A stretch of DNA of 60,297 nucleotides, from positions 1-60,297 of the forward strand of contig CAOQRA010000003.1 in assembly GCA_948512295.1 (NCBI GenBank). The letters are read 5' to 3'. The DNA is from an uncultured Eubacteriales bacterium. Lineage in GTDB: Bacteria; Bacillota; Clostridia; Christensenellales; UBA1242. The translations under genes were made by a program, and so were the position numbers. This document shows, piece by piece, positions 12,626-29,476 of this stretch. The notes below the pieces were generated by a model. That model was not told where the DNA came from. It searched no databases and saw only the letters and a program-made list of their open reading frames with translations. Each line of letters begins with the position of its first letter. Position 1 is the first letter of the stretch.

Positions 12626-13582
12626 TTAAATATACAAGATAGAAAAAACAAGATAATATAATGCGGTCGTGGAAAGCATCTCTCCTGATTTAATTTTATA
12701 ATCTATATCCTCTAAAAGCGCATATATTTTTTTTAGTTGCATTTTAGAAAAATTGTTTACCTGCTCACGCTGCTTAGAAATTGCATACTCCCTTACTGAA
12801 AGAAGAGAGGCAAGCTCTGAATTGGTCATATCTGATATAGCAATAAAGAATAAGCGTCTAAAGTGATTGGTAATAAGTGCTAATGTACCTGGCTGCTTTT
12901 CCATCTGATTTAAAAGCACAATGGCTTTATCCAGATTTTTCTTACCTAAAGCTTCCGTAAGTTGAAAGACAGCGAACTCAATATTCTTATGGACAACGTT
13001 TTCTATTAATTTTTTGGTGACAAGGCTGTCGCTTGTGTCAAAGTAGATAAGTTTATCAAGTTCGTTCATAGCGAAAGTTAGATAGCCATTACAATAGTCA
13101 AGTAAAGTTTCCGCCGCCTCCGAGCTTATCTGTTTACCATTTTTAGCAAGCTCAGCGACGATAATATTTTTTGCGAGCGTTCTATCCATACGTTTTGCAT
13201 CCACAAATTCGCAAGACGTCTTGAAAGCCAAAAACTGATTATTATAATCTAAAATCATTAAAATGGTGGTTTTGCAAGGATTTTTTAAATACTCAGCCAG
13301 AATTTTGCCATCATTTTCATTTAGCTTAGCTATGTTTTTAATAATAACTAATCTTCTATCACTTCCCATAGGCATAAATTCGCAAGCGTTTACAATGGTC
13401 TGCATATTGAAGTTGTCATCATCAAAAACCGCCTTGTTAAAATCTGGCAAACATAAATTCATAGCCTTTTCAAGCATGGCTACCGCCTTGTCGTACAAAA
13501 ATAAATCCTCACCATTAACTAAATAGCATGGTGCAAGAGAAGATTTAATTCGCGACTTAAAAGTTTTCAATCCAGCCTCCAA
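12626..13582 (-). CDS. holA: DNA polymerase III delta subunit
   Basis: 318 aa. The size, the N-terminal ...YLVNGEDLFL pattern and the position immediately after comEC (conserved Firmicutes synteny) support the call. Confidence 0.75.
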   Translation of the reverse strand: MEAGLKTFKSRIKSSLAPCYLVNGEDLFLYDKAVAMLEKAMNLCLPDFNKAVFDDDNFNMQTIVNACEFMPMGSDRRLVIIKNIAKLNENDGKILAEYLKNPCKTTILMILDYNNQFLAFKTSCEFVDAKRMDRTLAKNIIVAELAKNGKQISSEAAETLLDYCNGYLTFAMNELDKLIYFDTSDSLVTKKLIENVVHKNIEFAVFQLTEALGKKNLDKAIVLLNQMEKQPGTLALITNHFRRLFFIAISDMTNSELASLLSVREYAISKQREQVNNFSKMQLKKIYALLEDIDYKIKSGEMLSTTALYYLVFSILYI

Positions 13583-15810: not shown

Positions 15811-15838
15811 CAAAAAACGCGGGAAAGCCCGCGTTTTT
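15811..15838 (-). terminator. intrinsic terminator after the 460-aa lipoprotein gene
   Basis: AAAAAACGCGGG-AAAG-CCCGCGTTTTTT directly abutting the stop codon. Confidence 0.7.
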
Positions 15839-17220
15839 TATTCATTTTCTTGAGATATTGTCTTTTCAAATCCATTAAAGTTATATAGCGCTTTGTCAGT
15901 AAATTCATACTCAAATTCATCTATTTTTCTATAAGTGGTGTTTAATCTGCCATTAATAAGGTAGTCAGTAATAAAATCTTTAGTATTTCCGTCACTACGA
16001 ACATTAAAATCGAGATAATTTATGCCTTTGGAGTTTATTTTATAAACCTTCAAAGCTGTAGCCCCACATTCTAAGGAAGAATCTACAATTGTACCTCCTC
16101 TTGCCATATGAAGGAAATCGTTATCGTCTGAATATGTTAATAGTCCATCTTTTGATAATTTTTCAAATACTTGCTGTGTTTTTGGTAAATTATCTGTAGA
16201 GTATGAATCAATACTAAATACAATTAAACTTGTACTTTTTGTATTTGCAGGCTTAAAAGTGTTCTCATATAAATCTTTATAACTAATTTCATTAGTCAAT
16301 TGATATCTATATAATCCTAATGTGTGTCCAGTACTTCCATTTGTATAATTTAATCCTAGAATCAAATTATTTCCTTCAAAATCTATAGCAAAGATATTAT
16401 TTAGTGTTGCACCATTTAAACCAATACTTCTTTTTAAATTTTCTGCAAGAGTTATTTTAATATTTTCAACCATTTTTGGAGCATGTTCTGCTAGTTGCTC
16501 TGCGCTAAGGTTATCCCAATCAATTTCCTCTTTTTCTGGTGTAATTTCTGGAATTTCAAAACGTGTAGTGCCGACGTCTGTAATTGTGCCATTGGCATTA
16601 GAGTATTTATATTGCGCTGTACCATTGATTATTTTAATTTCAAGAGTATTTAACCCTTTACTTCCTACGAGATACTCTCCGTTGAGTTTTTCCCATGTAA
16701 TGTTATTAAATTTATCTAATGCATCATCAATGTCATGCGCATTTGCCTCTTCCCTTTCTCGCCAAGCTTCGCCGTCGTTATAGACTTTATAGGAGACATT
16801 GTCTTTTGTGTAATAATATGAAATATCGTCATTTTGAATGATTTTTGTTTCGCCGTTTGCGTATTCATAAGTCACGCCATTCTCTGTATTAGTGAAATTT
16901 TCAGCATTCATAGCGTTTGCAATAAACTCATTTGCTGTTTTAACAGCGGCGTTAAACTTTTTCTCCTCTTCATCTGGGATGTCTGGTTTTGGCGGATTTG
17001 GGTCTACTGGGTCAATAGGGTCTACCACTGGTGGATTAGGATTAACAGGGTCAACTGGAGTGTTTTGTTTATTACCACATGCGGCAAGTCCAAATATCAT
17101 GGACGCTGACATCGTAAAAGCGGCAATTGCAGCTGCCAATTTTTTTGGAAAACTAAAGCCCTTTTGTGTATTTTCAGACTTTAATTTAGCTTGTAATTTT
17201 TCTAATTCTTGATTTTTCAT
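15838..17220 (-). CDS. hypothetical lipoprotein with a Pro-rich linker (460 aa)
   Basis: Signal or anchor segment ending in the lipobox GLAAC. Followed by PVDPVNPNPPVVDPIDPVDPNPPKPDIP. Confidence 0.7.
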   Translation of the reverse strand: MKNQELEKLQAKLKSENTQKGFSFPKKLAAAIAAFTMSASMIFGLAACGNKQNTPVDPVNPNPPVVDPIDPVDPNPPKPDIPDEEEKKFNAAVKTANEFIANAMNAENFTNTENGVTYEYANGETKIIQNDDISYYYTKDNVSYKVYNDGEAWREREEANAHDIDDALDKFNNITWEKLNGEYLVGSKGLNTLEIKIINGTAQYKYSNANGTITDVGTTRFEIPEITPEKEEIDWDNLSAEQLAEHAPKMVENIKITLAENLKRSIGLNGATLNNIFAIDFEGNNLILGLNYTNGSTGHTLGLYRYQLTNEISYKDLYENTFKPANTKSTSLIVFSIDSYSTDNLPKTQQVFEKLSKDGLLTYSDDNDFLHMARGGTIVDSSLECGATALKVYKINSKGINYLDFNVRSDGNTKDFITDYLINGRLNTTYRKIDEFEYEFTDKALYNFNGFEKTISQENE

Positions 17221-17288: not shown

Positions 17289-19244
17289 ATGAAAAAATTT
17301 GCTATTTATATATTTTTGAATTATAATAATGATATGAAAAGATTTGCAAGAGTCATGTGTGCCGTATTTGTCGCAATGTTTGTCCTGCTTGGTACGGGTT
17401 GTTCCAGTGGCAGTTCAAATTTCCACCAAAACCTTCTTGACCGCTTTCATAATGGCGAACTCACTTATGACCAGCTTCAAACTGAACTAGAGCGCGCTCA
17501 AACTGTGCCACTTTATGGCACAAAGGTTTTATATCGCCCAAACCACTACGACTATGATAATTCCGTGGGCGAAGGAAACGAAAGTTATTATGGACAATAC
17601 GCATGGAATATTCTATCTAACTTATCATACATATATGGATTTTCTGATTTTAATCGATTTAACCCAACGCCTCAAAAGCCTACAAATACAATACGCCCGC
17701 TTCTTATTGACAAAACACAAGAATACTACTACGACTCTATCCGCTATCAAGTCACAAACAAAACTACCACAAATAATTTAATAATTTACACACAAGATGA
17801 CAATGGAAGCGAAGAAATAGATGGAATATTATACTCAAAAAACGAATTTGAAGACATAATTAAAATGACCGCTAACACTTCTTTTTCATGGAATTGGACT
17901 TTTGGTAGCGAAGCGATTCCTTTAGGATTTATTCATGATATGACTTACAGTGTGTATTCAAAACCTAGCATCGCAAATAGCTTGATATCTAATGCCTACA
18001 TCGAAACTCCAATATCGAATTACTACTCAAACAACCAAACACCATACTCCACTGCTTATTTAGGGACGGCTGAGCAGACGGGAATTGACAGCTATTCTGA
18101 CTATGTCAAGGCGCTTGAATATGTCATTTACTGCATCACTATGGACTTGACACCATCAAACATCACGACAAGCCTTGCATCAGACGGCACGCCTATTATC
18201 AATGTTCAAGGTTTTGAAAATGTAGACGCGGCGCTTGAGTTTATCAAAGGCGTGTTTGACAAAATAGGCACTTATGTCGGGTTAAACTCATACAAAACTA
18301 ATCGACTTATAAGTTACATCTTAAACAATGTCATCGGACAAAATGCATTAAGTCATGACACGGTGCAATCCTATACCGCCAATACTTTAATAGAATATCG
18401 CGACGCTAATGGAAATGTCATTGATACGCAAGAGGAAGGCAAAACTCTTAATGAAACAATAACCGTTGGGCGCAATTATACTGCTGTAGTTTCCGCAATT
18501 ATAAATGACTCCTTTCAATACGTACACATAGGAAGCGACAGTGAAAATGACATCATCACCAACCGCTTCCCTGCCTCTGAAGTGATTGACTACTACGGTA
18601 ACAATTTCTTCATTGCAAGTGAAAAAGGCAAGGAATTTGAACATATTGGTGCCAATGAATATCAAAGCGCAGTGCTTATGCTTAGTGAAGAGCAAAAGCT
18701 GGACAACCTCATGGTTCATTTCAAATACGACGCTGGCGAGGACGGAGATGAAGTCTATGACAAAAACGCTTCAATCACAATCAATGTAAAAGTAAATTAC
18801 TATAAACACGGCGGCGAGTGGAAACAACTTAAAACACAGTCTATCACTGTTAAAGACGGTCCATTCAACTATGGAAAGGAAAGCAGCACGCTGTGCTTAT
18901 TCGGAATAGCCCCCGATAAAAAAGGATTTAAAATCGGCAAATTTAACCCTGAAGTCGGAGGCGGCATATTAAAATGCATGGTTGATTATGACGGAACAAC
19001 AGCAATCTCCGACCCCGTACGCCTTGTCGGCACCACCAAACTTAAAGACTGGTACAAACTTGTCGAGCCCGAGCCTACCGATGAACCTCAAAATGCATAT
19101 TACAGTTATGGAATACTCAATCATGAAAAATTCACTGGCTCAGACGGATGCGACTACTTTGAAATTGCCTTTGAGGTTGTAAAAACAACTGGCGACTATA
19201 ACACAAACTACAAATTCTACACTGGACTCGGTTTAGTAGCATAA
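17289..19244 (+). CDS. hypothetical secreted protein or lipoprotein (651 aa; alternative start 17334)
   Basis: From M16, MKRFARVMCAVFVAMFVLLGTGCSSG looks like a lipoprotein-type signal. Divergent from 15838..17220. Confidence 0.7.
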   Translation: MKKFAIYIFLNYNNDMKRFARVMCAVFVAMFVLLGTGCSSGSSNFHQNLLDRFHNGELTYDQLQTELERAQTVPLYGTKVLYRPNHYDYDNSVGEGNESYYGQYAWNILSNLSYIYGFSDFNRFNPTPQKPTNTIRPLLIDKTQEYYYDSIRYQVTNKTTTNNLIIYTQDDNGSEEIDGILYSKNEFEDIIKMTANTSFSWNWTFGSEAIPLGFIHDMTYSVYSKPSIANSLISNAYIETPISNYYSNNQTPYSTAYLGTAEQTGIDSYSDYVKALEYVIYCITMDLTPSNITTSLASDGTPIINVQGFENVDAALEFIKGVFDKIGTYVGLNSYKTNRLISYILNNVIGQNALSHDTVQSYTANTLIEYRDANGNVIDTQEEGKTLNETITVGRNYTAVVSAIINDSFQYVHIGSDSENDIITNRFPASEVIDYYGNNFFIASEKGKEFEHIGANEYQSAVLMLSEEQKLDNLMVHFKYDAGEDGDEVYDKNASITINVKVNYYKHGGEWKQLKTQSITVKDGPFNYGKESSTLCLFGIAPDKKGFKIGKFNPEVGGGILKCMVDYDGTTAISDPVRLVGTTKLKDWYKLVEPEPTDEPQNAYYSYGILNHEKFTGSDGCDYFEIAFEVVKTTGDYNTNYKFYTGLGLVA

Positions 19245-19261: not shown

Positions 19262-19294
19262 AAAAAACGAAGAGGCGTTGCCTCTTCGTTTTTA
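19262..19294. terminator. bidirectional intrinsic terminator
   Basis: AAAAAACGAAGAGGC-GTT-GCCTCTTCGTTTTT lies between convergent genes (651-aa ORF and holin). Confidence 0.8.
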
Positions 19295-19582
19295 TTTTGT
19301 TTCTTTTTCTGCATTTTGACTTTCTTTCATGTGGTTTGTATCTTCTTGTTCTTGAGTCTGATTACTCTCCTCTGAAGTCTGATCTTGTTTATCACTACTT
19401 TCACCTTTTGGCATTGTTACAACCCCCAGTACAACCAGCAAACCCGCTACTGCCATTACAACGCCAGTAACAATTTCATTATCCACCGAAAATCCAAAAC
19501 ACTTGCCAAGAGCTTCCATTAATACAACCGCCGCCCCTGCAAGCGCAGTCCAAAAACTATATGACTTTATTCTGTTTTTCAT
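19292..19582 (-). CDS. phage holin, phi-LC3/Phage_holin_1-like (96 aa)
   Basis: SYSFWTALAGAAVVLMEALGKCFGF...VTGVVMAVAGLLVVLGVV gives two TM segments plus a charged acidic tail. RBS AAAGGAG. Family call is from recalled signature. Confidence 0.65.
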   Translation of the reverse strand: MKNRIKSYSFWTALAGAAVVLMEALGKCFGFSVDNEIVTGVVMAVAGLLVVLGVVTMPKGESSDKQDQTSEESNQTQEQEDTNHMKESQNAEKETK

Positions 19583-19799
19583 GTATTTGCTCCTTTAAAA
19601 TATGTTCTTTAAGTTCAGTGACTTCCTCTTTGACATCCTCAATTACTTGAAGCCTTTCTGTCAAGTTTTCAATGGTGTCTTGATATGCTTTTTCACGTTT
19701 TGAACTATCTTTAAGTTGGTAGAAAAATAGGAACACGAAAAGCGTAGCAAATATACCATTACTGATTACTACGCTGACAAGCTCATTCCAAAAATCCAT
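19557..19799 (-). CDS. BhlA/UviB-family holin-like protein (80 aa)
   Basis: One N-terminal TM (NGIFATLFVFLFFYQLKDSSKRE) followed by a coiled-coil tail, matching the recalled BhlA/UviB pattern. Confidence 0.65.
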   Translation of the reverse strand: MDFWNELVSVVISNGIFATLFVFLFFYQLKDSSKREKAYQDTIENLTERLQVIEDVKEEVTELKEHILKEQIHEKQNKVI

Positions 19800-19907
19800 T
19801 TCCCTTACCCCTCAATTCTTCGCTTATAAAAATATGTTTCATAGCTTTCTCCTCTTGATATAACTTTTTTCTAGCAAGGTATGAGATATGGTTTAAGTTG
19901 AAAATTA

Positions 19908-21386
19908 TCATTGTTCACTCATTGATAAATTAAAGTTGGATATGCTCCCATTTCCATTACTTTCTATAGTAACTTTAAACTTTTCCCCTGCAAGTCCACA
20001 ACGAAAAGTCTGCTGTTTTTGCTGAGGCTCAACTGCAAATACTCTTTGCTCTTTTTCAGTCGCTATAGTAATATTGAACTTTCCAGTTGCAAAACAAGAA
20101 AACTCTTCCAGTTTTTTAACACGATTACTCATTCCGAAATCACTCATGGGACTTTCCCACACGCTATATGGTTTTTCACCAAAAATATTACCATCAGTGA
20201 CAAGTTCCCCCATGCGCCCTATGTGCTGATTATTAAAGCACATTACCACTTTACATTTATAAGGATTATTAAGAGCAATGATTTTTTTTACGTCTACACC
20301 GCGTAAAAAATCCACACTGCCATTTTCTATGTTATATACCATAATTGCATTGTTTATATATCCATTTTCATAACTTTCACAGCCAATTTTCTGCTGGTCG
20401 CCAAAGTCAACCCGACAAGCAAGATAATATTTACTTTCGAAACATACTGCACTTAGATTACGGCCGTCTGAAATCACTTCACGACAATTTAATTTCAGTT
20501 TTTTGACATTGACTCCATCAAAACGATAGAAGCCATCTGTAGTCAAAAAGTAAACATTCTCTCCATCGGAAGCGATGGAGCCTGGATAAATATAACTGCT
20601 GGATTGAAACATATGATTGATATTAAATTCCCCAGAAGACGCATAAGTTGATATTCGTGTAATACCAAAATCTCGAAAAACATACAAGTAGTCATTAAAA
20701 GACATTACGACCGACGGATTTCCTCGATCATCGGTAAATTCTATATGCTGAGTGGTGTTATTCTTCCACTCTAAAAGATTTTTATTGTCAGAATATACAA
20801 GCTTAGGACGCGCAGTGGCAGTAAGTGCATAAAGCATGTCATCATGACTGCAGCAAGACATGAGTTTTGGCGCATCAGAAAGATAAGTATTATAGCCTGC
20901 TCCAAAAACAAAAACATCGCCATCTGCTGCTGAAAAAAGCATGTAGTCAGAACCATTTATACGATAGCTCATTCCAATTGGTGTGGAGGTGTATTCTGTT
21001 TTTCTGACAAGTCTTATTGGTCTTGTCCAAAACATATTTTCATATCCCAATGTGGCTTCATCATTGAAATAAAATAGATAGTACTCAATCACATTGCCTG
21101 TTTCATTGAACCATGCAAAATTCCATATATTTAATATTTCACTGCCTGCATACTCTACTACTACTTCATTGTCTAAATCAGTAGTGCTGGTAGGCATTTG
21201 TAAGTCGCGCACGCCATAACCACAGGAAAGCATGTTACCTTTGTTTCGAAAATTGTAACAACGAACACAATCGTGATATTCAAGTTCTTCCTCATTTTTA
21301 CTGCGAACTTGACATTTTTCAAATAGGTCAAATTTAAAAAGCTTTTTATTTCTCTTAAAAGAGTTTAACTTTTTAGGATAAAACAT
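19908..21386 (-). CDS. phage structural protein, tail-hub/nozzle-like by position (492 aa)
   Basis: Start set to ATG 21386 (AGGAGG plus 8 nt), which shares one nucleotide with the upstream stop (TAATG). Beta-rich with recurring aromatic-Gly strands (YFLTTDGFYRFDG, YMLFSAADGDVFVFG). The call rests on synteny and size only. Confidence 0.45.
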   Translation of the reverse strand: MFYPKKLNSFKRNKKLFKFDLFEKCQVRSKNEEELEYHDCVRCYNFRNKGNMLSCGYGVRDLQMPTSTTDLDNEVVVEYAGSEILNIWNFAWFNETGNVIEYYLFYFNDEATLGYENMFWTRPIRLVRKTEYTSTPIGMSYRINGSDYMLFSAADGDVFVFGAGYNTYLSDAPKLMSCCSHDDMLYALTATARPKLVYSDNKNLLEWKNNTTQHIEFTDDRGNPSVVMSFNDYLYVFRDFGITRISTYASSGEFNINHMFQSSSYIYPGSIASDGENVYFLTTDGFYRFDGVNVKKLKLNCREVISDGRNLSAVCFESKYYLACRVDFGDQQKIGCESYENGYINNAIMVYNIENGSVDFLRGVDVKKIIALNNPYKCKVVMCFNNQHIGRMGELVTDGNIFGEKPYSVWESPMSDFGMSNRVKKLEEFSCFATGKFNITIATEKEQRVFAVEPQQKQQTFRCGLAGEKFKVTIESNGNGSISNFNLSMSEQ

Positions 21387-21940
21387 TATAACCACCTCCT
21401 CCTAGGCAGGCGCACGGCAGTCTTTTTGCTTATAAACAGCTTTAAGCTTTCTTTAAATCGGTTTTCATAAATGTCCGCATCTGCCCCCTGTCCCTGAAGC
21501 AGAAAATACTCTCTTGCAACTCCATAAGCTATAACTCTTGCAGGTATCATTAAGTCAATATCACTAACTAAAGTGGCAGCTTCGGGCGAATAAGAATATA
21601 TTATCTTGGCTTTGTCAGCAAACACCAAAATGTATTTATCAAAGATTTTATATCTTATCTTGCGTCCTTTAGTATTCTTTACAGAAAAGATATTTAACGG
21701 TTTTTTAGAAAATTGATCGAATGTAAGTTTCAAATTATTTACCTCTAAAATTTCCTCCGTGGTTACAGGCGAATATTGTTCGCATATTTCGCCGATAACA
21801 AGATTTAGACAATTTAAATAACTATCAGCGACCTTGCTTTCTGCCGTTGTAAGACTGGATATGTCCGTGCTGTTTAGCTTTTCACGGAGAGGATTTTGTG
21901 TAAAGTCACAAGCAAGTCTTAAAATTTCATAGCTTTTCAT
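21386..21940 (-). CDS. phage head-tail adaptor-like protein by position (184 aa)
   Basis: Translationally coupled on both sides. Basic C-terminus RLPRRRWL. No motif recognised. Confidence 0.4.
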   Translation of the reverse strand: MKSYEILRLACDFTQNPLREKLNSTDISSLTTAESKVADSYLNCLNLVIGEICEQYSPVTTEEILEVNNLKLTFDQFSKKPLNIFSVKNTKGRKIRYKIFDKYILVFADKAKIIYSYSPEAATLVSDIDLMIPARVIAYGVAREYFLLQGQGADADIYENRFKESLKLFISKKTAVRLPRRRWL

Positions 21941-22251
21941 AATATTTCCTCCACAACTTTTTCTACTGCAGAATGCAGTTGTTTTTTTTGCAACTTATCA
22001 TTTTCTGCATCCATTTGTTTTATAATTTCATCCATTTTCTCTTTGCGAGTTTTAAGCGCGTAAAAGATGGCACGCTCGTCTAAAACGTCATCTTTTACGC
22101 TGAAACAAAATGACCCACCAAACTGCTGCGTTGAATGCACTTCATAACGTTTTTCTTTTAAATTAAAAAGTATAAAATAACTTTTGTCCACTTCTTTCAA
22201 TCTTTGAGCAATAAAAAGTGGATCATTTTCTATTAAACAATAATTCTTCAC
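21937..22251 (-). CDS. phage hypothetical protein (104 aa, GTG start)
   Basis: GTG preceded by AAAGGAG plus 7 nt. Lies directly after the capsid gene. Confidence 0.5.
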   Translation of the reverse strand: MKNYCLIENDPLFIAQRLKEVDKSYFILFNLKEKRYEVHSTQQFGGSFCFSVKDDVLDERAIFYALKTRKEKMDEIIKQMDAENDKLQKKQLHSAVEKVVEEIL

Positions 22252-22271
22252 ACTTAAAACTCCTTTTGAAA

Positions 22272-23480
22272 CTATGCACCAGTTGTAGTAGGAATATATG
22301 TTTTATATGGATCTTCTACTGTAAACTTAACATTAGAAATTTTTCCTTGACCAAATGGTTTGTCGCAAATAAGTTCAGCATATTTAACAAGTGTTGCGCT
22401 ATAAGTAGGATAACCTGCATTTTGTCTTAACACTCTGCCGCCCTCATCTTCAATCCACTTCCAATCGCAAAGTTCATATAGTGTAAAGTCATCAGTATTG
22501 AGAAGATACATGCTGCTAGGCTCTACAAATCTGTCAGCGTATACAGGTATTCCGTTATGACTAATGGTTTTAGCCCCATTTGCAAGTTCTACAATATCTA
22601 CATTCTTACGATAGATATTTAAATATTGCTGATAAGCACGACGAATTTGACGAGAGGTTGAAATAAAGTTGATAGAAGAATCAGCATTTTCCTCTAAAAA
22701 GTCGATGGCACTTTGAATACGTATATCAGAAATTTCACTTTCAGCATTGTCATGGAAAGAATTAAGCCAGTTGTAGTCTGCTTTATTTAAACCATACAAA
22801 GTAGTACCACTAAACAATGCTTCAATACCTGTAAGTTCATTGTCTTTTGAACCTTGAACATAAAGCTTAGCATTTGCAGTTATAGATGTGGTAAAATCAG
22901 AAGTATCATATTTAATTGTGTTATTGACTCTGTCAACTGAAACAACTTTCATAGGTCCTTTACCAAGTCTTGAACCAGTGATATATGGAGTAAGCATCAT
23001 GCCTTCCACAATGTTACGTACACTATCTACAGTAAGCGTTTTATCAGAAGCAACTGATTGTACAGTAGCAACAAGCCCCTCACCATCTCCATAAAGCATA
23101 CGGCTTAAATTGAAACTGCAAGCTTTTACAAGTGATTCCATTTCGTCTGCAAGAAGGTTGACAAAAGCTCCCACATTGCTTGCAGAAGCACGAACTGCCT
23201 TGTCAGAAATTTCAAATTTACCATATAGGTTTTTAAGGCTTGCACGCATTTGTGCATAATGACTATTACCAGCAACAGGAAGTGCATCCGTTTCGGTGCC
23301 AGCACCAAAGCCGCCATTTATTCCAAATGGAGCAGCTTTAACAATTTCTTTTCCGAAAATATCCTTACTAGAACGTTTAATTTTAGCTAAAAGTGGGCTT
23401 GCTGAAACGTTAATTTGATCAGCAACGACTCCTAAATAAACACTTTTAAGGGCATTTTCAGCGGTTTGTAATGTAACCAT
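22272..23480 (-). CDS. phage major capsid protein (HK97-fold type, 402 aa)
   Basis: The N-terminal AENALKSVYLGVVADQIN...SPLLAKIKR...NLYGKFEISDKAVRAS...LYGDGEG matches the recalled pattern of major capsid proteins of Firmicutes phages. Follows the portal and scaffold genes. Confidence 0.8.
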   Translation of the reverse strand: MVTLQTAENALKSVYLGVVADQINVSASPLLAKIKRSSKDIFGKEIVKAAPFGINGGFGAGTETDALPVAGNSHYAQMRASLKNLYGKFEISDKAVRASASNVGAFVNLLADEMESLVKACSFNLSRMLYGDGEGLVATVQSVASDKTLTVDSVRNIVEGMMLTPYITGSRLGKGPMKVVSVDRVNNTIKYDTSDFTTSITANAKLYVQGSKDNELTGIEALFSGTTLYGLNKADYNWLNSFHDNAESEISDIRIQSAIDFLEENADSSINFISTSRQIRRAYQQYLNIYRKNVDIVELANGAKTISHNGIPVYADRFVEPSSMYLLNTDDFTLYELCDWKWIEDEGGRVLRQNAGYPTYSATLVKYAELICDKPFGQGKISNVKFTVEDPYKTYIPTTTGA

Positions 23481-23494
23481 AATTTTCTCCTTTT

Positions 23495-24136
23495 TTAACT
23501 AAACATTTTTTCCACCAACGATTTCGCTTCTTTAAGGGAAGTTGGAGTGTCAGGCTTGCTGCTTGACACTCTTTCACCCTTTTGCGAAGAAATGATGATT
23601 GGTGATTTTTGCTCTTTGAGCGCATCAAGATAACTTTCAACTATCTTGTTTTTAATCTCCTCGCTAGAAACAAGGTATCGATTAATAATAGGATCATCCA
23701 CTTTTTTGGTGTGCATGTGCGATAGTACTAATTGCGCCCATGCTGCCTCATACGGATTATCCATTTTTTGCAGCTCATTATTGGAACTTACAATATTTTC
23801 AAGCTCCCCTTTAAACTGCATAGCTTCTTCATTTTTCAAAAGGAATTGATTAAGCTGCTCGCTGAAGTTGCGAGGAGCCACCTCAACTTTATCTTTTTCC
23901 AGTTGACTAAGCTTTTGACACTTTTTTGTAAACTCGGCTTCCAAATTGTTATAGGCGTCAATAAGCGCCTGTGCAGATTTGAATTTGCCAAACGTTTGCT
24001 CTTCGGGATTTTCATCTTGTCGAATTAAAGTATCGGGTAGAGAGCCATTCTCACTCACAGCACACTCATTCTTCGTTTCAATAGAAACATTTGCCGGTTC
24101 CTCTAATGGTTGTTCTCTAAATTCTTCTTCGTTCAT
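23495..24136 (-). CDS. phage scaffolding-like protein (213 aa)
   Basis: Acidic, helical and low-complexity; contains FKSAQALIDAYNNLEAEFTKK. Sits between portal and capsid, with an ATGA overlap to the portal stop. Confidence 0.65.
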   Translation of the reverse strand: MNEEEFREQPLEEPANVSIETKNECAVSENGSLPDTLIRQDENPEEQTFGKFKSAQALIDAYNNLEAEFTKKCQKLSQLEKDKVEVAPRNFSEQLNQFLLKNEEAMQFKGELENIVSSNNELQKMDNPYEAAWAQLVLSHMHTKKVDDPIINRYLVSSEEIKNKIVESYLDALKEQKSPIIISSQKGERVSSSKPDTPTSLKEAKSLVEKMFS

Positions 24137-25986
24137 ACTTTCACCTCACTCAAAGTTTTTTTATGTTGATTTATATGTTCCAAAAATACATCCTCTAATT
24201 TTACATTGTTTTTAAGAGCTTTCTCATACTCGCCACCAAGCATAAAGGAAATATGCTCCGCAATATGAAGTTCAGCGTCATCAATAGGGCTGACTTTAAC
24301 GACAACTCCATCCAGCATTTTAAGATTTTCATTGTCAGCACGTTTTATATGAAGCTCGGAAATATCTTGAGCATTTTCCCAATTTCCAAAGCCAAGCATT
24401 TCAAGCACTTTATTTTTCATACGCGAGGAAAGTTTCCCCTCTTCGTCATGAAGCACGCCCGCTTTAAGTAAACTAAAAACCATTTCTCGACGGCCTGTTA
24501 AGCTGTCAGACAGTTCTGATTGAACATCAATGACCACGTCGTCACTTGAAATATCGTTGGAGGAAAAGTAAAACATTTCAACTTGTCCATTGTCGCCAAT
24601 AAGTCTTGCTAGACGAGGGAAAAGTGCATATTGCTTATATAGCCTTAATATTCGCTTAGCAATGTTAATACAAGCACTGCGAATACTTTCTATTGTGGTG
24701 TTTAATCTGGCTTCATCTTGACCTATCATAAGTTCAAGCGCCGCACCACTCATGTTTGCGTTTACATAATCTGTACCAAGAGTTTCACTGACTCCGCTTA
24801 TTCTATTAAATTCATCAAGAAGTTTGCTCTCTTCATCGGCAAAACCAGATGGAATTGCTTCTCCTGACAAGAATTTAGGCTGCTGTGCACCTTGGCGATA
24901 GACAATGACTTTGCCAGGACATAAGCCCTCCTCTTCTAAATTTTCAAGGTCAACTGAGCCATCTTCTATGCTGAGTACTCCTAAGGTTAAACGATTGATA
25001 AATTCATGTTTGCGATTTTTAACAGCATTGTAGGCACGCTGTACTGGCACTAATCTTTCAATCACACTGCTTCCCCAAAAACAGCCCGCTTGCTCCAAAC
25101 TAACTTGTCTAATAAACGGGAAATCGCGCTTTTTATCATCGCCACATAAATAAGGCAGTTCATCATCGTAAACAAGTACATCGCCTACTACAATAATCAA
25201 CCTACCTTTTGGAAAGGAAGCACAAGGCCGAACATATTTTTCTAGCACAAGCGCACTATTTGTCTTAGTGCCCTCTACAAATTTAGTAGTGGTAGCATTA
25301 TAGCCAAGCCCTCCTAGGCCATTTAAAACATTGTCAAGACTGTAACAATTAATATCCTGACCTTTTAAATCAAGGCCGTACATGGTTCTAACTTCTTCTA
25401 TAGAATATGCCCTAGCATGAATAATGCTTTGGCAATCGTTTAAGCTTTCTCTTGTTGGCGAATCAGGATATATTTCAAAAGGGCTAATCGCTTCGACCTC
25501 AACTTCACCACTGCGGATAGAATTGCCCTCCTCACTGTTTGCAATTACTTGACCAAGCTTCCCATTCCAAGTTACTTTATAAAAGCTTGTCCCAGTAACT
25601 TCACTCCATTTTATTGCTTGATTGATTTTCTCGTCGATACAAAGCTTATAATGTACAGATTCCAAAATCTTTTTGGATACTTTGGCAGTTTGCTTATCAC
25701 TTTCATCATTAGTCGCAGGCACGACAGTAAACTTTGGCTTTGACCCCGTCAGTTTGGCCGTTCGCACATCATAAAGCGGAGCGATATGATTAAACACTTC
25801 CCTCTCCTGCCAAAAGAACTGTTTGTCCGCCTCCTCGACAAGCCCGCCATAGCCCACATTGCAATATTGGTTTCCCATTAAAAAGTTCATATTGATTTGC
25901 CAATTAGTTTCAAAGGGCTTGCGCTCAAGTTGTCGTCTTTTAAAATCTTCAATTACTTCATTTACTACTGTTTTATTGTTTTTCAT
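24133..25986 (-). CDS. phage portal protein (617 aa)
   Basis: Size, the N-terminal ...PFETNWQINMNFLMGNQY pattern and the position ahead of scaffold and capsid. Confidence 0.75.
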   Translation of the reverse strand: MKNNKTVVNEVIEDFKRRQLERKPFETNWQINMNFLMGNQYCNVGYGGLVEEADKQFFWQEREVFNHIAPLYDVRTAKLTGSKPKFTVVPATNDESDKQTAKVSKKILESVHYKLCIDEKINQAIKWSEVTGTSFYKVTWNGKLGQVIANSEEGNSIRSGEVEVEAISPFEIYPDSPTRESLNDCQSIIHARAYSIEEVRTMYGLDLKGQDINCYSLDNVLNGLGGLGYNATTTKFVEGTKTNSALVLEKYVRPCASFPKGRLIIVVGDVLVYDDELPYLCGDDKKRDFPFIRQVSLEQAGCFWGSSVIERLVPVQRAYNAVKNRKHEFINRLTLGVLSIEDGSVDLENLEEEGLCPGKVIVYRQGAQQPKFLSGEAIPSGFADEESKLLDEFNRISGVSETLGTDYVNANMSGAALELMIGQDEARLNTTIESIRSACINIAKRILRLYKQYALFPRLARLIGDNGQVEMFYFSSNDISSDDVVIDVQSELSDSLTGRREMVFSLLKAGVLHDEEGKLSSRMKNKVLEMLGFGNWENAQDISELHIKRADNENLKMLDGVVVKVSPIDDAELHIAEHISFMLGGEYEKALKNNVKLEDVFLEHINQHKKTLSEVKV

Positions 25987-26197
25987 CTTTTTTCAACCTC
26001 TTATTTAGTTTAAACGGGCTTGCTACCGCCTTTGGCACTTTAATTTTCTTCGCCGCATCATAAAGTTCGTTTACGCACTCTTCACAAAGACATATGTCGC
26101 GCCTAAGAAGCCCTTTCTTTACAAAAGTGAACCTTGCGACATTTCGACAACCTGCAAAGTCGCACTTAACTTTGTGAGAACACTCATATACTTCCAT
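25973..26197 (-). CDS. small zinc-ribbon protein (74 aa)
   Basis: CSHKVKC...C...CLCEEC cysteine pairs and a basic tail. Overlaps both neighbours by 14 nt. Occupies the slot where a large terminase would normally be. Confidence 0.6.
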   Translation of the reverse strand: MEVYECSHKVKCDFAGCRNVARFTFVKKGLLRRDICLCEECVNELYDAAKKIKVPKAVASPFKLNKRLKKDEKQ

Positions 26198-26480
26198 CCT
26201 CTTCCTCCTTTAAAATATTTAATAGTCGTGCTCGCTCAGCTTGAAGTTCTTCGTCAGACATGTTACGAATTTGTTCTGCTAAATCACCTCCCGAAAACTT
26301 TTCAAAAAGCACTCGCATCGCCGTGATGTCTGGGCTAACATGTTTTTTGGTCACTTTCTTTTTGGTAAGCTTCGCCTGACCATTCTCATCAAGAGCATAC
26401 TCCATCACCACTTCTTGAGTGTCATAACCAAGAGCTTTTTTCATGAGTGCCTTTTTAAGCTTTTCTTCTTCATCTAGCAT
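26184..26480 (-). CDS. terminase small-subunit-like fragment (98 aa, no N-terminal HTH)
   Basis: KKALGYDTQEVVMEY..DENG....KKKVTKKHVSPDITAMRVL resembles the central segment of Terminase_2-type TerS proteins (recalled pattern). First gene of the operon, RBS GGGAGGAAGG. Confidence 0.4.
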   Translation of the reverse strand: MLDEEEKLKKALMKKALGYDTQEVVMEYALDENGQAKLTKKKVTKKHVSPDITAMRVLFEKFSGGDLAEQIRNMSDEELQAERARLLNILKEEEDGSI

Positions 26481-26505
26481 TGCCTTCCTCCCACGCTTTG
26501 CCTAG

Positions 26506-26534
26506 ATTATATTTGCGTAAGTTTCCACTTTCAA
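26506..26534 (-). promoter_or_regulatory. near-consensus sigma-A promoter of the capsid operon (TTGAAA-N17-TATAAT)
   Basis: Minus strand reads TTGAAA gtggaaacttacgcaaa TATAAT. The -10 ends 26 nt before the ATG at 26480. It is the only intergenic space upstream of the operon. Confidence 0.6.
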
Positions 26535-26559
26535 GTTTTACTGCCAAAAATTTTTAAAA

Positions 26560-26590
26560 TAAAAAACCACCAGAATACTGGTGGGTTTTA
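26560..26590 (-). terminator. intrinsic terminator after the Cys-rich gene
   Basis: Minus strand reads AAAACCCACCAG-TATT-CTGGTGGTTTTTT. Confidence 0.75.
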
Positions 26591-26593
26591 AAT

Positions 26594-26956
26594 TTAGCAG
26601 CATTTACGGCCAAACATACTTCCTGCAAGAAAGAATATTGCAGAGCTCGGAATACTAAAATTCATGCAGCCACAATTATTTGGTCGCTTGTTACAATCAC
26701 ATGGAGTGTGACAAGCTCTGTTGCATGGACGATGACACGGTCTGTCACATACGTTATGACAAGGACGTTCACATGGTCTAGCGTTATGACAAGGGCATGG
26801 ATTTTTGCAATCCCACTTATAATCACATGGATTTATTTGTGGTCTACAATTACAAGGACGTTCAGGTCTGAATCCGAAATCCCAGTCTTCTGGCCAATTA
26901 TTTTGACAGTTGTGCATATCAAAATAGTCGCCTGTTTTATAATTACAATTGTACAT
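26594..26956 (-). CDS. cysteine/histidine/proline-rich protein with a hydrophobic C-terminus (120 aa)
   Basis: 20 Cys in 120 aa. Iterated RPC(H/N/E) units (RPCERPCHNVCDRPCHRPCNRACHTPC), then SAIFFLAGSMFGRKCC. RBS AGGAGAAAAT. Confidence 0.7.
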   Translation of the reverse strand: MYNCNYKTGDYFDMHNCQNNWPEDWDFGFRPERPCNCRPQINPCDYKWDCKNPCPCHNARPCERPCHNVCDRPCHRPCNRACHTPCDCNKRPNNCGCMNFSIPSSAIFFLAGSMFGRKCC

Positions 26957-27006
26957 ATTTTCTCCTAATAATGAATTATATAACTCTATTTCTAATAGAA
27001 TATACT

Positions 27007-27999
27007 ATGAAAAAGTCCTTATACACCTTTTTAATCTTAGTGGGCACCGTAATAGGATCTGGCTTTTTAAGCGGAAAGGAAATTGTGGTTTTCTTTTCGC
27101 GTTTTGGTCTTTTATCCTATCCTTGCATAGTATTAGCCACCATACTATTCGCTGCACTTTTCTTTTTTTTGCTTTCCGCTGGCGAAAAGGCAGTAAAAAG
27201 ATTACAAAAATCAAAATATTCTAATTTGATTAACATAGTTATTTGCACAATACTTTCCTCTGCCATGTTTGCTGGCTGCTTTAATGTCTTAAACAAACTT
27301 GGTAGTTTTATCGCTTACCCCTTTTTGCTTATAATTGGATTTGCATGTTTTATAATTAATAGAAAAGGCTTAGGCTACCTTGAAAAAGCCAATTTAATCA
27401 TAGTGCCAATTATGGTTTTCATGCTGATAGCAAACGTGGCATCACAAGCAAAACTTGGCACTGAAACACATGTTTATTCCTACCTAGGCATTTATTACGC
27501 AGTCATGTATGTGATATTAAATACAGCAAGTTCAAGCGTGCTTCTTGCAAACTTAGGCGAAAGCTTATCGAAGAAACAAAAAGCACAAGTGAGCATATTA
27601 AGCGCACTCGTGCTTGGGGCAATTTTGCTGCTTGCAAATTTTGTGTTACTTCAAAATCCTTCAAACTTTAATGAGGAAATGCCGCTCATTTCGCTTTTCA
27701 GCGGATTACAAGGCGCGCTTATGCAATTAGTAATCTTATTTGGCTGCCTAACGACACTTTTTTCTGCCGTGTTCACACTTGGGCAATCTTTGAGAGGGCT
27801 GATTGGTGTCAAAAGTGCAAATGTGGCAAGTATACTCGCTCCGCTTATATTAAGCTTCTTAGGTTTTGGAAACATAGTTTCCATGCTATATCCGCTATCT
27901 AGCGTTTTGGGTATATTTTTGTTATTCGATTTATTTTTGGTGCCGTTTTTCAAGCAGACTTACAAGACCATACATTCCGCCCGCAATAACACAAAGTAA
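27007..27999 (+). CDS. YkvI-like polytopic membrane protein (transporter-like)
   Basis: MKKSLYTFLILVGTVIGSGFLSGKEIVVFF matches the recalled YkvI N-terminal G.GF.SG.EI signature. About 10 TM segments. The ORF-track start at 26971 is less likely. Confidence 0.6.
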   Translation: MKKSLYTFLILVGTVIGSGFLSGKEIVVFFSRFGLLSYPCIVLATILFAALFFFLLSAGEKAVKRLQKSKYSNLINIVICTILSSAMFAGCFNVLNKLGSFIAYPFLLIIGFACFIINRKGLGYLEKANLIIVPIMVFMLIANVASQAKLGTETHVYSYLGIYYAVMYVILNTASSSVLLANLGESLSKKQKAQVSILSALVLGAILLLANFVLLQNPSNFNEEMPLISLFSGLQGALMQLVILFGCLTTLFSAVFTLGQSLRGLIGVKSANVASILAPLILSFLGFGNIVSMLYPLSSVLGIFLLFDLFLVPFFKQTYKTIHSARNNTK

Positions 28000-28776
28000 T
28001 ACAATGCTAGTCATTACAATGTCAAGTTTGAGCATTTGACTGCCATAGTTTATGAGGTAACCAAGGCCTGCCCTGCTTGAAAGATATTCGCCCATAACGG
28101 TGCCGACCCAGCTCATACCAACATTAATTTTAAGCACTGAAACAAATTCTGGCATTGCGTTAGGAATAACAAGCTTATAAAGAATTTGAAACTTATTAGC
28201 CCGCATAGATTTCATAAGCAGCACTTTATCCTTATCACAAGAAATAAAAGCATTCAGCATAGAAATTATGGTAATGACAATGCATATAAGCACACTCATT
28301 ACAATCGTTGCACCTGTACCTGAGCCCACCCAGAAGATAATCATAGGTCCAAGCGCAATTTTAGGTAGACTATTAAGGATAATAAGATAAGGTTCCATAA
28401 TTTTCCGAAGCTTCTCACTCCACCAAAGCGCAATAGCAATAAGCATACCAAGGACAATCGCAATAATAAACCCTAATATAGTTTCATAAAGTGAAGTCCA
28501 GATATGCAATATAAGATTGCCACTGGCAAAAAGGTCGACAAGCGTAACCGCTATACGAGATGGACTGGAAAAGAAGAACGGATCAAGCACCCCCACGCTT
28601 GCAAACAGTTCCCATAGCCCGAGAAGAATTGCAAAAAGTGCAATTCGCCAGAAAATGACAATAATTTTATCTTTTCTCAGCTTTTTTAGGTATTTTTCAT
28701 GGGCTTTTGATAATTTGTTCACTTGTAAGGTTTCTCCATATATTTTCAAAATGCTTACCAAAGTCACTTGCTTCAC
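27931..28776 (-). CDS. ABC transporter permease, NitT/TauT (SsuC-like) family
   Basis: Six TM segments with an EAA-like loop. Directly downstream of the matching ATPase. The start may be the internal GTG at 28722. Confidence 0.8.
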   Translation of the reverse strand: MKQVTLVSILKIYGETLQVNKLSKAHEKYLKKLRKDKIIVIFWRIALFAILLGLWELFASVGVLDPFFFSSPSRIAVTLVDLFASGNLILHIWTSLYETILGFIIAIVLGMLIAIALWWSEKLRKIMEPYLIILNSLPKIALGPMIIFWVGSGTGATIVMSVLICIVITIISMLNAFISCDKDKVLLMKSMRANKFQILYKLVIPNAMPEFVSVLKINVGMSWVGTVMGEYLSSRAGLGYLINYGSQMLKLDIVMTSIVLLCVIAGGMYGLVSLLEKRHQK

Positions 28777-29476
28777 GCTTTTTTAGAGGAGTGTCACCTT
28801 CAAGGTCTAAATCCAAACATTCTTTTAAAGAAGCTGGTCGTCCTGAAAGTATTATCACCCTATCCGACATGGAAATTGCTTCCGATATATCATGCGTGAC
28901 AAGCAGCGCAGTTTTCTGTTCACCTTTTATCATGTCATAAACATCATCACACACTTTAAGACGTGTTTGAAAATCTAATGCCGAAAAAGGCTCGTCTAAA
29001 AGTAACAGGCTAGGTTCTAAAACTAACGTTCGTATAAGCGCAACTCTTTGGCGCATTCCGCCACTAAGCTGGGTAGGCTTTTTGTCTTTAAAATTGTAGA
29101 GGTCATATTTTTTTAATAAATCCTCTGCTAAAGCAAGCTTTTGTGCGTCTTTATTTTTCTTTTGTAATTCAAGCCCCAGCGTAATGTTTTGCCAAATAGT
29201 TCTCCAGTCGAATAAATGATCACGTTGAAACATATACCCTATTCGAGAATCATTTTTAGCTATGGGCTTTCCGTCAAGCAGAATTTGCCCCTCGCTAGGC
29301 TCAAGCAGCCCCGCCGTAAGCGATAAAATAGTCGTTTTACCGCAGCCAGAAGGGCCTACAATAGACGCAAAAGCTTTTTCATTTACACTAAAACAAAGTT
29401 TGTTAAGTGCATGAATTTCGCTTTCTTTAGTTTGGTAAAAGTAAGTTACATCTTTAAATTGTAAAAACTCTTGCAT
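28697..29476 (-). CDS. ABC transporter ATP-binding protein, NitT/TauT family
   Basis: Walker A GPSGCGKTT, signature LSGGMRQR, Walker B LLLDEPFSALD. Confidence 0.9.
   Translation of the reverse strand: MQEFLQFKDVTYFYQTKESEIHALNKLCFSVNEKAFASIVGPSGCGKTTILSLTAGLLEPSEGQILLDGKPIAKNDSRIGYMFQRDHLFDWRTIWQNITLGLELQKKNKDAQKLALAEDLLKKYDLYNFKDKKPTQLSGGMRQRVALIRTLVLEPSLLLLDEPFSALDFQTRLKVCDDVYDMIKGEQKTALLVTHDISEAISMSDRVIILSGRPASLKECLDLDLEGDTPLKKREASDFGKHFENIWRNLTSEQIIKSP

Follow-up and report, generated by a model that had tools for sequence, protein, structure and literature searches.

Why should the chromosome of an uncultured gut bacterium carry an intact set of podovirus head genes with no packaging enzyme, fibre or lysin gene beside it? 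The reading that best accounts for this block, with a probability of roughly 0.68, is that the operon supplies the structural and lysis genes of a domesticated podovirus, inherited vertically as a GTA-like viriform. Its carriers, relatives of Christensenella, make up a large clade of uncultured gut Clostridia. Under this reading, the head block is one of two halves of a system that makes phage-derived particles, and related genomes encode the packaging enzyme elsewhere.

The window (the whole stretch of DNA that was analysed, 60,297 nucleotides) contains the head block as a tightly coupled minus-strand operon that runs from 26480 to 19292 and is set in core chromosome. The GC content of the operon is that of its flanks, and the rest of the window harbors tuf, fusA, rpsG, ligA, pcrA, holA, comEC, and pepF, as well as ileS, hslUV, topA, dprA, and comM. 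No large terminase (TerL), tail fibre, endolysin, integrase, or replication gene was found within these 60 kb. The operon comprises 11 genes, including a 42-aa ORF. From the promoter end, the features are as follows.

26567..26584, minus strand: intrinsic terminator of the upstream Cys/Pro-rich gene (7-bp stem with 5 GC pairs, then a T run)
26506..26545, minus strand: promoter (GGCAG box, TTGAAA, 17-nt spacer, TATAAT)
26483..26492, minus strand: ribosome-binding site, GGGAGGAAGG, read from the sequence
26184..26480, minus strand: TerS-like protein, 98 aa (phrog_309, 5e-5)
25973..26197, minus strand: Zn-ribbon protein, 74 aa (Cys motifs in the sequence)
24133..25986, minus strand: portal of the P22/SU10 type, 617 aa (PF16510, 3.5e-16; phrog_156, 1.6e-30)
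23495..24136, minus strand: scaffold-like protein, 213 aa (from position and composition only)
22272..23480, minus strand: major capsid protein (MCP) of podovirus type, 402 aa (NF033394; phrog_14242, 7e-45)
21937..22251, minus strand: p104, which sits where P22 has orf69
21386..21940, minus strand: p184, presumed head-to-tail adaptor (position and size)
19908..21395, minus strand: p495, 495 aa, predicted tail nozzle/hub of the P22 gp10/T7 gp12 class (AF2 and Foldseek)
19783..19911, minus strand: small ORF, 42 aa (conserved across loci)
19557..19799, minus strand: BhlA/UviB-type holin, 80 aa (PF10960, 6.6e-18)
19292..19582, minus strand: Phage_holin_1-type holin, 96 aa (PF04531, 1.2e-5; phrog_297, 1.3e-12)
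19263..19293, no single strand: bidirectional intrinsic terminator (14-bp stem)

The genes are joined by 4-nt ATGA overlaps at 24133-24136 and 21937-21940 and by TAATG at 21386; the other junctions, calculated from the coordinates, are overlaps of 14-26 nt or gaps of 14-20 nt. The upstream terminator insulates the head operon, while the downstream one is common to the operon and a convergent lipoprotein gene. The 42-aa ORF overlaps the p495 stop codon by ATGA and also overlaps the start of the BhlA gene, such that it is predicted to be translationally coupled on both sides. It is 49-58% identical in the closest loci, and a 46-aa gene occupies the same place in locus L010.

Most of what a sequence-only reading had described here holds: ten minus-strand ORFs with these coordinates, overlaps, and gaps; the promoter, the ribosome-binding site, and the two bracketing terminators, all evident in the sequence; host-like base composition and flanks of host or core type; and the identities of the portal, of an HK97-class podovirus MCP, and of BhlA-like and phi-LC3-type holins, each borne out by the profile matches listed above. 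Three of its statements require correction. A supposed 108-nt gap ahead of the BhlA gene (19800-19907) is filled by the 42-aa ORF. Its list of absences stands for TerL, fibre, endolysin, integrase, and replication genes in the window, whereas the claim that no tail gene is present fails, since a nozzle is a tail protein. The third concerns the first gene of the operon, which had been called a TerS "fragment". Small terminases (TerS) match this 98-aa ORF in their C-terminal part only, and no DNA-binding domain is recognisable in it; however, it is kept in about 170 loci at lengths of 92-143 aa with a dN/dS of 0.02-0.04, and is thus a conserved short protein under strong constraint.

The remaining head genes are also under purifying selection. 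The Zn-ribbon protein is present in nearly all loci (dN/dS 0.05-0.07). The portal evolves at a dN/dS of 0.03-0.04, and its profile search against PDB sequences returned nothing useful. The scaffold-like protein has no family match in profile searches; its position is kept across loci and fits the P22 gene order, with a dN/dS of 0.17-0.35. The MCP scores 236 bits against NCBIfam NF033394 (cut-off 80), and NF033394 is its only assignment, there being no N4-gp56 match at E ≤ 0.01; its dN/dS is 0.03-0.2.

p104 is retained in distant phage relatives (dN/dS 0.07-0.12) and has no profile or structural match, including in a profile search against PDB sequences. p184 (dN/dS 0.04-0.10) is presumed to be the head-to-tail adaptor on the basis of its position and size. 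Its single-sequence model is weak (pLDDT 63) and has no significant fold match; chain A of the Pa223 and SU10 tails aligns with part of it, below significance. Comparison of p184 with P22 gp4 and T7 gp11 by hhalign gave no match, PHROG scans of individual members of its alignment gave no consistent family, and a profile search against PDB sequences gave nothing useful; a word-index homologue search recovered only p184 itself, the index being too coarse at ~40% identity.

p495, the likely start of which is the ATG at 21386, is confidently predicted to be a podovirus tail nozzle/hub. Its AF2 model (pLDDT 87.4, pTM 0.87) matches the Pa223 tail (9nwi_Y, E 1.9e-18, TM 0.73/0.70) and VP1 (8zkk_O, TM 0.74/0.70) in Foldseek, with further matches to GP4, T7 gp12, the SU10 nozzle, and the Sf6 hub. 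By profile, only a marginal SU10 match was obtained against PDB, later backed by the fold search, and hhalign against P22 gp10 found no match. Sequence comparison is uninformative at the P22/T7 distance even where folds agree. With p495 as the nozzle/hub, the block amounts to a head, a neck, and a tail core.

The virion module of P22/T7-type phages is thereby recognisable, with a P22-type portal, an HK97-class podovirus MCP, and a beta-propeller nozzle/hub. The cluster shares with P22, T7, SU10, and Pa223 the portal family (PF16510/PF23899), the p495 nozzle/hub fold, and the order portal, scaffold, coat, small ORF, adaptor, hub. The parallel with the P22/T7 order drawn from sequence alone stands for the order itself and for the hub, the fold of which Foldseek bears out; it is weaker for the adaptor, where the p184 model is poor and its matches fall short of significance. 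Unlike these podoviruses, the cluster lacks a needle or plug, ejection proteins, fibres or spikes, and a lysin; it has no replication or lysogeny genes, and it is chromosomal and vertically inherited.

TerL is found in relatives of the cluster. In more distant ones, the same genes directly follow TerL (Terminase_6N plus 6C), which adjoins a phage-type late activator. Relatives of this TerL occur in at least 560-594 species genomes, and 56 of 79 TerL loci carry a portal within 10 kb. A locus survey splits group A, without TerL in the cluster, from group B. In the wider clade of the window the cluster is split, and at least 12 group-A MAGs with the same reduced block carry TerL and the activator on another contig. 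This group-A TerL is intact (pN 0.08-0.23, with pS saturated). The second locus is syntenic, consisting of a 175-aa gene, a 267-aa gene on the opposite strand, and TerL; the 175-aa protein matches phage transcriptional activators (phrog_248, 1.8e-11).

The two loci are also connected by their promoters. An extended promoter box is common to the head operon and to the activator gene beside TerL in other genomes: it has 102 matches compared with 12 in shuffled sequence, of which ~39 precede the activator gene and ~32 the head operon. In the window, TTGAAA-17-TATAAT at 26534-26506 matches 11 of 12 positions, and the GGCAG box, the −35, and the −10 are kept across group-A loci. A sigma-54 reading of the TGGCA-N6-TTG box was rejected, the spacing being one base off the −24/−12 consensus in the best cases. 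The conserved −10 TATAAT at 17 nt is instead compatible with a sigma-A-type promoter with an activator box.

Neither the window nor either locus of the relatives yielded an endolysin, a fibre, spike or receptor-binding protein, a needle or plug, or an ejection protein. The GLUG-repeat proteins of 757 and 833 aa and the neighbouring lipoproteins were considered as tail fibres and set aside; they have signal or lipoprotein leaders and no phage matches. The large proteins adjoining TerL likewise carry signal peptides and resemble cell-surface proteins rather than fibres.

If the block is the structural half of a GTA-like viriform, the activator would switch on the head operon in a subpopulation of cells. 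Scaffold, capsid protein, and portal would then assemble into small procapsids, into which the unlinked TerL and the TerS-like protein lacking a DNA-binding domain would package DNA in a headful manner, without sequence specificity. The portal would be closed by p184 as adaptor and p495 as nozzle. Release may be accomplished by the two holins together with an unlinked lysin or a host autolysin, and recipient cells would take up the packaged DNA. The earlier suggestion of a GTA-like particle with an unlinked packaging enzyme is partly supported, being favored by synteny, co-divergence, selection, and the constrained unlinked TerL of at least 12 MAGs. For the window's own genome and its six closest MAGs, no TerL is among the matches listed, an absence that is in itself uninformative, although TerL may have been lost in that sub-clade.

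Taken at face value, that absence in the six closest MAGs speaks for a domesticated particle with a purpose other than gene transfer (programmed lysis with eDNA release, a PBSX-like killer, or, if TerL has been lost, an empty or protein-loaded capsid), as do the two holins unaccompanied by a lysin and the lack of an identified fibre or receptor-binding protein, needle, or ejection proteins. Such a particle is unlikely. Portal, TerS-like protein, and nozzle are constrained within the window's own sub-clade (dN/dS 0.02-0.10), which would be difficult to account for if no DNA were packaged and retained; at least 12 genomes with an identical block keep TerL under constraint, and GTA-type packaging has been reported for Christensenellaceae. 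It is more doubtful still that the window's sub-clade (the window and the six MAGs, at 68-77% portal identity) has lost TerL altogether and loads or uses its particles independently of a terminase. If so, the particles could hold protein or RNA cargo, serve as a release device, or rely on a borrowed or unrelated packaging motor, and the loss of TerL would be a step of exaptation beyond a GTA.

The remaining alternatives are addressed by the distribution of the block. It occupies the same chromosomal site in about 55 species-level MAGs; the same 10-11 genes and flanks are present in six species at 70-78% MCP identity, and further genomes carry the block at 62-66%. By its portal pattern, the cluster is found in 101 species genomes. 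The block diverges in step with neighbouring housekeeping genes: identity to the window is 63-76% for the portal, 58-71% for holA, and 71-82% for the ABC ATPase, with the same rank order of genomes. All genomes in the analysis are MAGs, and single pairs could be affected by errors of binning or assembly. Purifying selection acts on every ORF, with dN/dS values of 0.02-0.35 over the block (0.06-0.15 for the Phage_holin_1-type holin). Thus, the block combines a fixed site, co-divergence, and purifying selection. In the window and its relatives, the phage-derived structural genes are chromosomal and are accompanied by no genes for autonomous replication, integration, or lysogeny. The protein family is rare in viral contigs, with 15 matches, all at ≤56% identity.

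A capsid-forming satellite (cf-PICI-like) or other helper-dependent element would mobilise itself, with terminase, tails, and lysin borrowed from a phage resident in the same cell. The block does have its own capsid, portal, and TerS-like protein yet no local TerL or fibres, and some copies are flagged viral in IMG/VR. This explanation is nevertheless very improbable: the 60-kb window and the 10 kb to each side of every locus contain no integrase, replication, primase, or excision gene, the block co-diverges vertically at one site rather than being scattered over attachment sites, and related genomes have a TerL and an activator of their own that are chromosomal, dedicated to the system, and conserved together. 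The satellite and compartment alternatives raised by the sequence-only reading accordingly find no support, with no integrase or replication genes, a fixed site, and portal, TerS-like protein, and TerL all retained. Its null hypothesis, a decaying prophage remnant whose leftover podovirus late genes drift towards loss, accords with a window devoid of TerL, fibres, lysin, integrase, and replication genes and is scarcely credible, being rejected by the dN/dS values and by the locus survey, in which about 55 species keep the full set of 11 ORFs intact at the same site. Divergence moreover matches that of host genes, the promoter is conserved, and no deletion scars or pseudogenes occur. Two of the checks that had been proposed, synteny in related genomes and selection on portal and capsid, both favor retention.

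To our knowledge, GTAs have been genetically characterised in few lineages, mostly Alphaproteobacteria. The RcGTA-type GTAs of Rhodobacter, Caulobacter, and Bartonella have phage-derived structural genes that are inherited vertically under purifying selection. They are distributed over several loci, with a TerS lacking a DNA-binding domain, a dedicated activator, and no replication or integration genes. The present cluster resembles them in its vertical inheritance under purifying selection, its TerS, and its lack of replication and integration genes, and, in related genomes, in its split loci and activator. In contrast, the alphaproteobacterial GTAs are siphovirus-like with long tails, belong to another capsid and terminase lineage and another phylum, and have a demonstrated function, whereas that of the present cluster is predicted. 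The PBSX and other defective-prophage particles of Bacillota are likewise chromosomal, non-propagating, and phage-derived, in Gram-positive hosts. However, PBSX is an unrelated, myovirus-like lineage encoded in a single ~28 kb locus with its own terminase, tail, and lysis genes.

In the human gut microbiota, Christensenellaceae are a prominent family, associated with health and highly heritable, and a conserved device for DNA exchange would matter for the evolution of their largely uncultured genomes. The activator gene and the shared promoter box provide a testable regulatory handle, and the split and contiguous variants form a natural series in which to study the way domestication takes apart and rewires a phage late operon.

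The first GTA of gut Clostridia, FpGTA of Faecalibacterium prausnitzii, was published in 2026 (Borodovich et al., Nat Commun 2026, PMC12946183). Like the present cluster, it is a podovirus-like domesticated element with functions spread over two chromosomal loci and an operon of about ten ORFs that includes a TerS without a DNA-binding domain, a portal, a scaffold, and an MCP. FpGTA particles have a tailless appearance, and the DNA packaged in them does not reach the length of the locus (PMC12946183). The FpGTA MCP carries an N4-gp56 family annotation (supplementary file 4, PMC12946183) and the present one that of NF033394 capsid_maj_Podo, such that the two capsid lineages differ as far as annotation sets them apart. 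In FpGTA, moreover, TerL belongs to the head operon, and portal and MCP are separated by a Prp-like protein. The second FpGTA locus combines holin and lysin with baseplate and fibre genes. In the present cluster the head operon itself includes the holins, and the second locus of group-A relatives carries TerL and an activator. FpGTA and the present cluster probably arose by independent domestications.

In human faecal VLPs, the same study observed DNA of Christensenellaceae MAGs packaged in a GTA-like manner as fragments of 4.1 kb and 6.3 kb, naming no locus, and it reports packaging for genomes HGM11616 and QANA01 (PMC12946183). The present cluster, which is order-wide and vertically inherited, is a concrete candidate locus for this activity. 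The reported peaks, at 4.1 kb and 6.3 kb, compare with a head block of 7.2 kb plus the TerL locus.

The phage-derived minus-strand series at 26480-19292 is probably a gene transfer agent (GTA)-like system (probability about 0.68). The ten-ORF chain described in the sequence-only reading is present exactly as stated, with joins of 4-26 nt overlap or 14-20 nt gap, and profile searches name four of its members: the portal, the major capsid protein (MCP), a BhlA holin and a Phage_holin_1 holin. The exception is the 108-nt gap reported ahead of the BhlA gene, which is filled by a 42-aa ORF that overlaps both the stop of the 495-aa gene (ATGA) and the BhlA start and has homologues of 45-46 aa in related loci; the operon therefore contains eleven genes. 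The promoter (TTGAAA-17-TATAAT, 11/12 matches), the ribosome-binding site and the two terminators were all found in the sequence.

Genes of the head operon (26480-19292, minus strand, in order), with profile matches and dN/dS (Nei-Gojobori)
98 aa, minus: TerS-like, phrog_309 5e-5 to the C-terminal part of small terminases only; dN/dS 0.02-0.04
74 aa, minus: Zn-ribbon ORF; dN/dS 0.05-0.07
617 aa, minus: P22-type portal, PF16510 3.5e-16, phrog_156 1.6e-30; dN/dS 0.03-0.04
213 aa, minus: scaffold-like; dN/dS 0.17-0.35
402 aa, minus: podovirus MCP, phrog_14242 7e-45, NCBIfam NF033394 236 bits (cut-off 80); dN/dS 0.03-0.07 (unsaturated pairs), 0.08-0.22 (saturated pairs)
104 aa, minus: p104; dN/dS 0.07-0.12
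184 aa, minus: p184, putative adaptor; dN/dS 0.04-0.10
495 aa, minus: p495, predicted tail nozzle; dN/dS 0.05-0.10
42 aa, 19783-19911: small ORF
80 aa, minus: BhlA holin, PF10960 6.6e-18
96 aa, minus: Phage_holin_1 holin (second holin), profile match; dN/dS 0.06-0.15

The AlphaFold2 model of p495 is confident (64-sequence MSA, pLDDT 87.4, pTM 0.87) and yields full-length matches to podovirus tail nozzle/hub proteins, led by the Pa223 tail (9nwi_Y, E 1.9e-18, TM 0.73/0.70), VP1 (8zkk_O, TM 0.74/0.70) and GP4 (8jov_A), with T7 gp12, the SU10 nozzle (architecture in PMC9509320) and the Sf6 tail hub lower. Portal, MCP, nozzle and holins are identified, the nozzle by its predicted fold. In P22, the gene order is portal, scaffold, coat, orf69, gp4 adaptor, gp10 hub, needle, and ejection proteins; the block runs in parallel (portal, scaffold, MCP, p104, p184, p495) and ends after the hub. 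The position and size of p184 suggest a head-to-tail adaptor; its single-sequence model is weak (pLDDT 63) with no significant fold matches, and hhalign detects no match to gp4 or gp11. p104 is kept in distant phage-like relatives. No endolysin, fibre/receptor-binding protein, plug, or ejection protein was identified for the system.

The block is domesticated, as its fixed site, vertical descent and selection show. An MCP scan (one genome per species) returned six MAGs at 70-78% identity, labelled Christensenella sp., Christensenellaceae or Clostridia, each with the same gene series. In four of the six the flanks agree as well, with pepF and an ABC transporter bordering one end and lipoproteins, comEC and holA the other end. 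Capsid relatives number more than 4,400 in the protein database. Identity does not fall below 61% among the best 120, many of which lie on 100-370 kb contigs; in two at 64-65% identity the block is identical and again sits between the ABC transporter and comEC/holA. Scanning with a portal profile yielded 101 species genomes, every one from uncultured gut Clostridia. A tblastn survey of all fetched loci places exactly this block at the same site in ~55 species, which form group A (portal identity to the window no lower than 57%). Module proteins keep pace with the neighbouring housekeeping genes in divergence and rank the genomes alike: compared with the window, the portal is 63-76% identical, holA 58-71% and the ABC ATPase 71-82%. 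The low dN/dS throughout indicates that every ORF, including the unannotated ones, is a selected gene.

A domesticated particle could also have some use other than that of a GTA, a reading that is unlikely but carries some weight. A helper-dependent satellite is improbable, since integrase and replication genes are not in the 60-kb window; nor were TerL (large terminase), fibre or lysin genes found there. The prophage remnant, which the sequence-only reading took as its null, is rejected as barely credible, because every ORF is selected and the block holds one site in ~55 species and diverges in step with host housekeeping genes. Base composition and flanks are host-like as that reading had it: the GC content of the block is not distinguishable from that of its flanks, and the remainder of the window is core chromosome.

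The segment at 26594-29476 of the window (genes for a Cys/Pro-rich 120-aa protein, a 342-aa membrane protein, and an ABC permease and ATPase) is inverted relative to all other group-A loci, where the head operon and the ATPase gene point away from each other; in L007, a related locus, the Cys/Pro gene is found on the far side of the membrane protein gene. The inversion left the head promoter and its box intact. Among loci L004, L005 and L006, the L005-L006 pair has a saturated dS for the portal but values of 0.24 for the MCP and 0.05 for the scaffold; L004 and L006 have almost the same second holin (dS 0.04), with that of L005 at a dS of ~0.9 from them, and the small ORF and BhlA region is almost nucleotide-identical across all three. 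This mosaic suggests between-lineage recombination within the cluster or chimeric MAG assembly.

The GTA-like reading draws on the terminase of relatives. In group B (portal 48-56% identical), the same gene series has an extra DUF7934 gene ahead of the holins, and many loci encode a 471-497 aa TerL (Terminase_6N + 6C) just upstream. TerL-profile relatives occur in at least 594 species genomes. A portal lies at most 10 kb downstream of TerL in 56 of the 79 TerL loci listed, and contiguous clusters run from TerL to TerS-like, portal, MCP, nozzle, DUF7934, and holin genes without interruption. The TerL site is syntenic (175-aa gene, 267-aa gene on the opposite strand, TerL); group-A genomes keep TerL at this site, with genes for a secreted GLUG-repeat protein and an ABC substrate-binding protein after it, and have the head block elsewhere. 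The two-locus split thus exists in relatives: TerL and head block are on different contigs, some >100 kb, in at least 12 group-A MAGs (CALVNW01, CAZVYB01, JAGASX01, CALVPQ01, CANQKH01, CALVNR01, CAJFOL01, CASFYE01, CAMSQA01, CATKXS01, CASDQU01, CAMLUY01). The unlinked TerL genes are all intact, with saturated synonymous sites and a pN of only 0.08-0.23, so that dN/dS is below ~0.1 wherever estimable. TerL as partner of the head block is observed in related group-A MAGs and is presumed for the window's own sub-clade; the TerL matches listed include ~16 of ~53 group-A MAGs and none of the window's six closest, an absence that carries no weight at such coverage.

The DUF7934 (PF25588) gene lies between the nozzle gene and holins (L063:16316-17206, L087:16796-17767, and ~30 other group-B loci), also in contiguous clusters, and no group-A locus has it; in L087 and L090 this interval contains three further co-directional genes (372, 288, and 313 aa). 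Large GLUG-repeat proteins with signal peptides regularly follow TerL (L143:11520-13793, L143:13833-19877, and L063:5893-8394; 757, 2014, and 833 aa). They have no phage-family matches, and the 757-aa protein is a homologue of the 833-aa one (26% identity, E 1e-14).

The 175-aa gene adjoining TerL encodes a phage-type transcriptional activator (phrog_248 1.8e-11; phrog_36 9e-10). In group-A head-operon promoters, the similarity extends beyond the sigma-A hexamers: an A/T tract with a GGCAG(T)AAA box immediately precedes the -35, and a second box, GGCAAAG or TGCCAAA, follows the -10. Across 4.2 Mb of loci, the pattern GGCA[GCT]-N5-7-TTGANN-N16-18-TANNNT occurs 102 times (12 in shuffled sequence), with 94 of the 102 on the cluster strand; ~39 precede the activator gene, ~32 the TerS-like gene, and none directly TerL. 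The head operon and activator gene have this box in common, and the common promoter type ties the head-operon locus to the TerL/activator locus. The activator presumably binds the shared box. In many loci (e.g., L143:8450-8520, L121, L140, and L164), the promoter box of the activator gene is closely preceded by repeated inverted-repeat half-sites, TTGTAAAA / TTTTACAA, which look like a candidate repressor operator.

It is proposed that the activator would drive head-operon expression, TerL would package DNA non-specifically by a headful mechanism, assisted by a TerS-like protein without a DNA-binding domain, and p184 and p495 would close the portal. Release would depend on the holins, and the DNA would be delivered to kin.

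The feature is real, non-random and biologically meaningful, and probably belongs to a known GTA/viriform kind rather than a categorically new one. The GTA of Faecalibacterium prausnitzii (FpGTA) employs a ten-ORF operon encoding a TerS without DNA-binding domain, TerL, portal, scaffold and MCP, and places fibre and lysis genes at a second locus; the capsids measure ~40 nm across, appear tailless, and hold ~8.5 kb of DNA (Borodovich et al., PMC12946183). The same study also describes GTA-like packaging for Christensenellaceae MAGs, where read lengths peak at 4.1 kb (HGM11616) and 6.3 kb (QANA01), and names no locus. The cluster offers a candidate locus, together with a regulatory handle, for this activity, which has been seen in a prominent gut lineage but not assigned to genes. 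By annotation rather than sequence comparison, the FpGTA capsid is of the N4-gp56 family and a Prp-like gene separates its portal and MCP, whereas the window capsid (NF033394) has no N4-gp56 match, TerL precedes the TerS-like gene in contiguous clusters of relatives, and the holins lie within the head operon. With capsid family and gene arrangement both different, the two systems are analogous and most likely independent domestications. Among 2.9 million IMG/VR contigs only 15 portal relatives occur, with identities of at most 56%. Most of them represent the same chromosomal cluster; a few, on contigs of 33-60 kb, resemble true phages of the ancestral lineage. Among cultured phages the nearest are Arthrobacter Jasminevirus and Microbacterium Shocker, at only 23-27% identity. 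A literature search turned up no description of the cluster.

In group A, the head operon adjoins comEC-holA, with only lipoprotein genes between. Recipients of RcGTA, an alphaproteobacterial GTA, require competence-type DNA import genes, and the window encodes comEC (13567-15687), dprA (50470-51537), and comM (51539-53071); the adjacency may be coincidence. Two lipoprotein genes without family matches lie at the operon 3′ end, 17289-19244 (+) and 15838-17220 (-). The 651-aa lipoprotein next to the second holin is kept in most group-A loci (30-51% identity, either orientation) and could be a system part, e.g., a receptor, immunity or release factor. The 120-aa protein (26594-26956, minus) has an extremely high content of Cys, Pro, Asn and Arg, with repeated CxxPC and RPC motifs, a hydrophobic C-terminal segment, no family match, and a 40%-identical homologue in L007. 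SpoIVA is encoded near the cluster in some carrier genomes (L008:19972-21224), suggesting that part of the clade may form spores.
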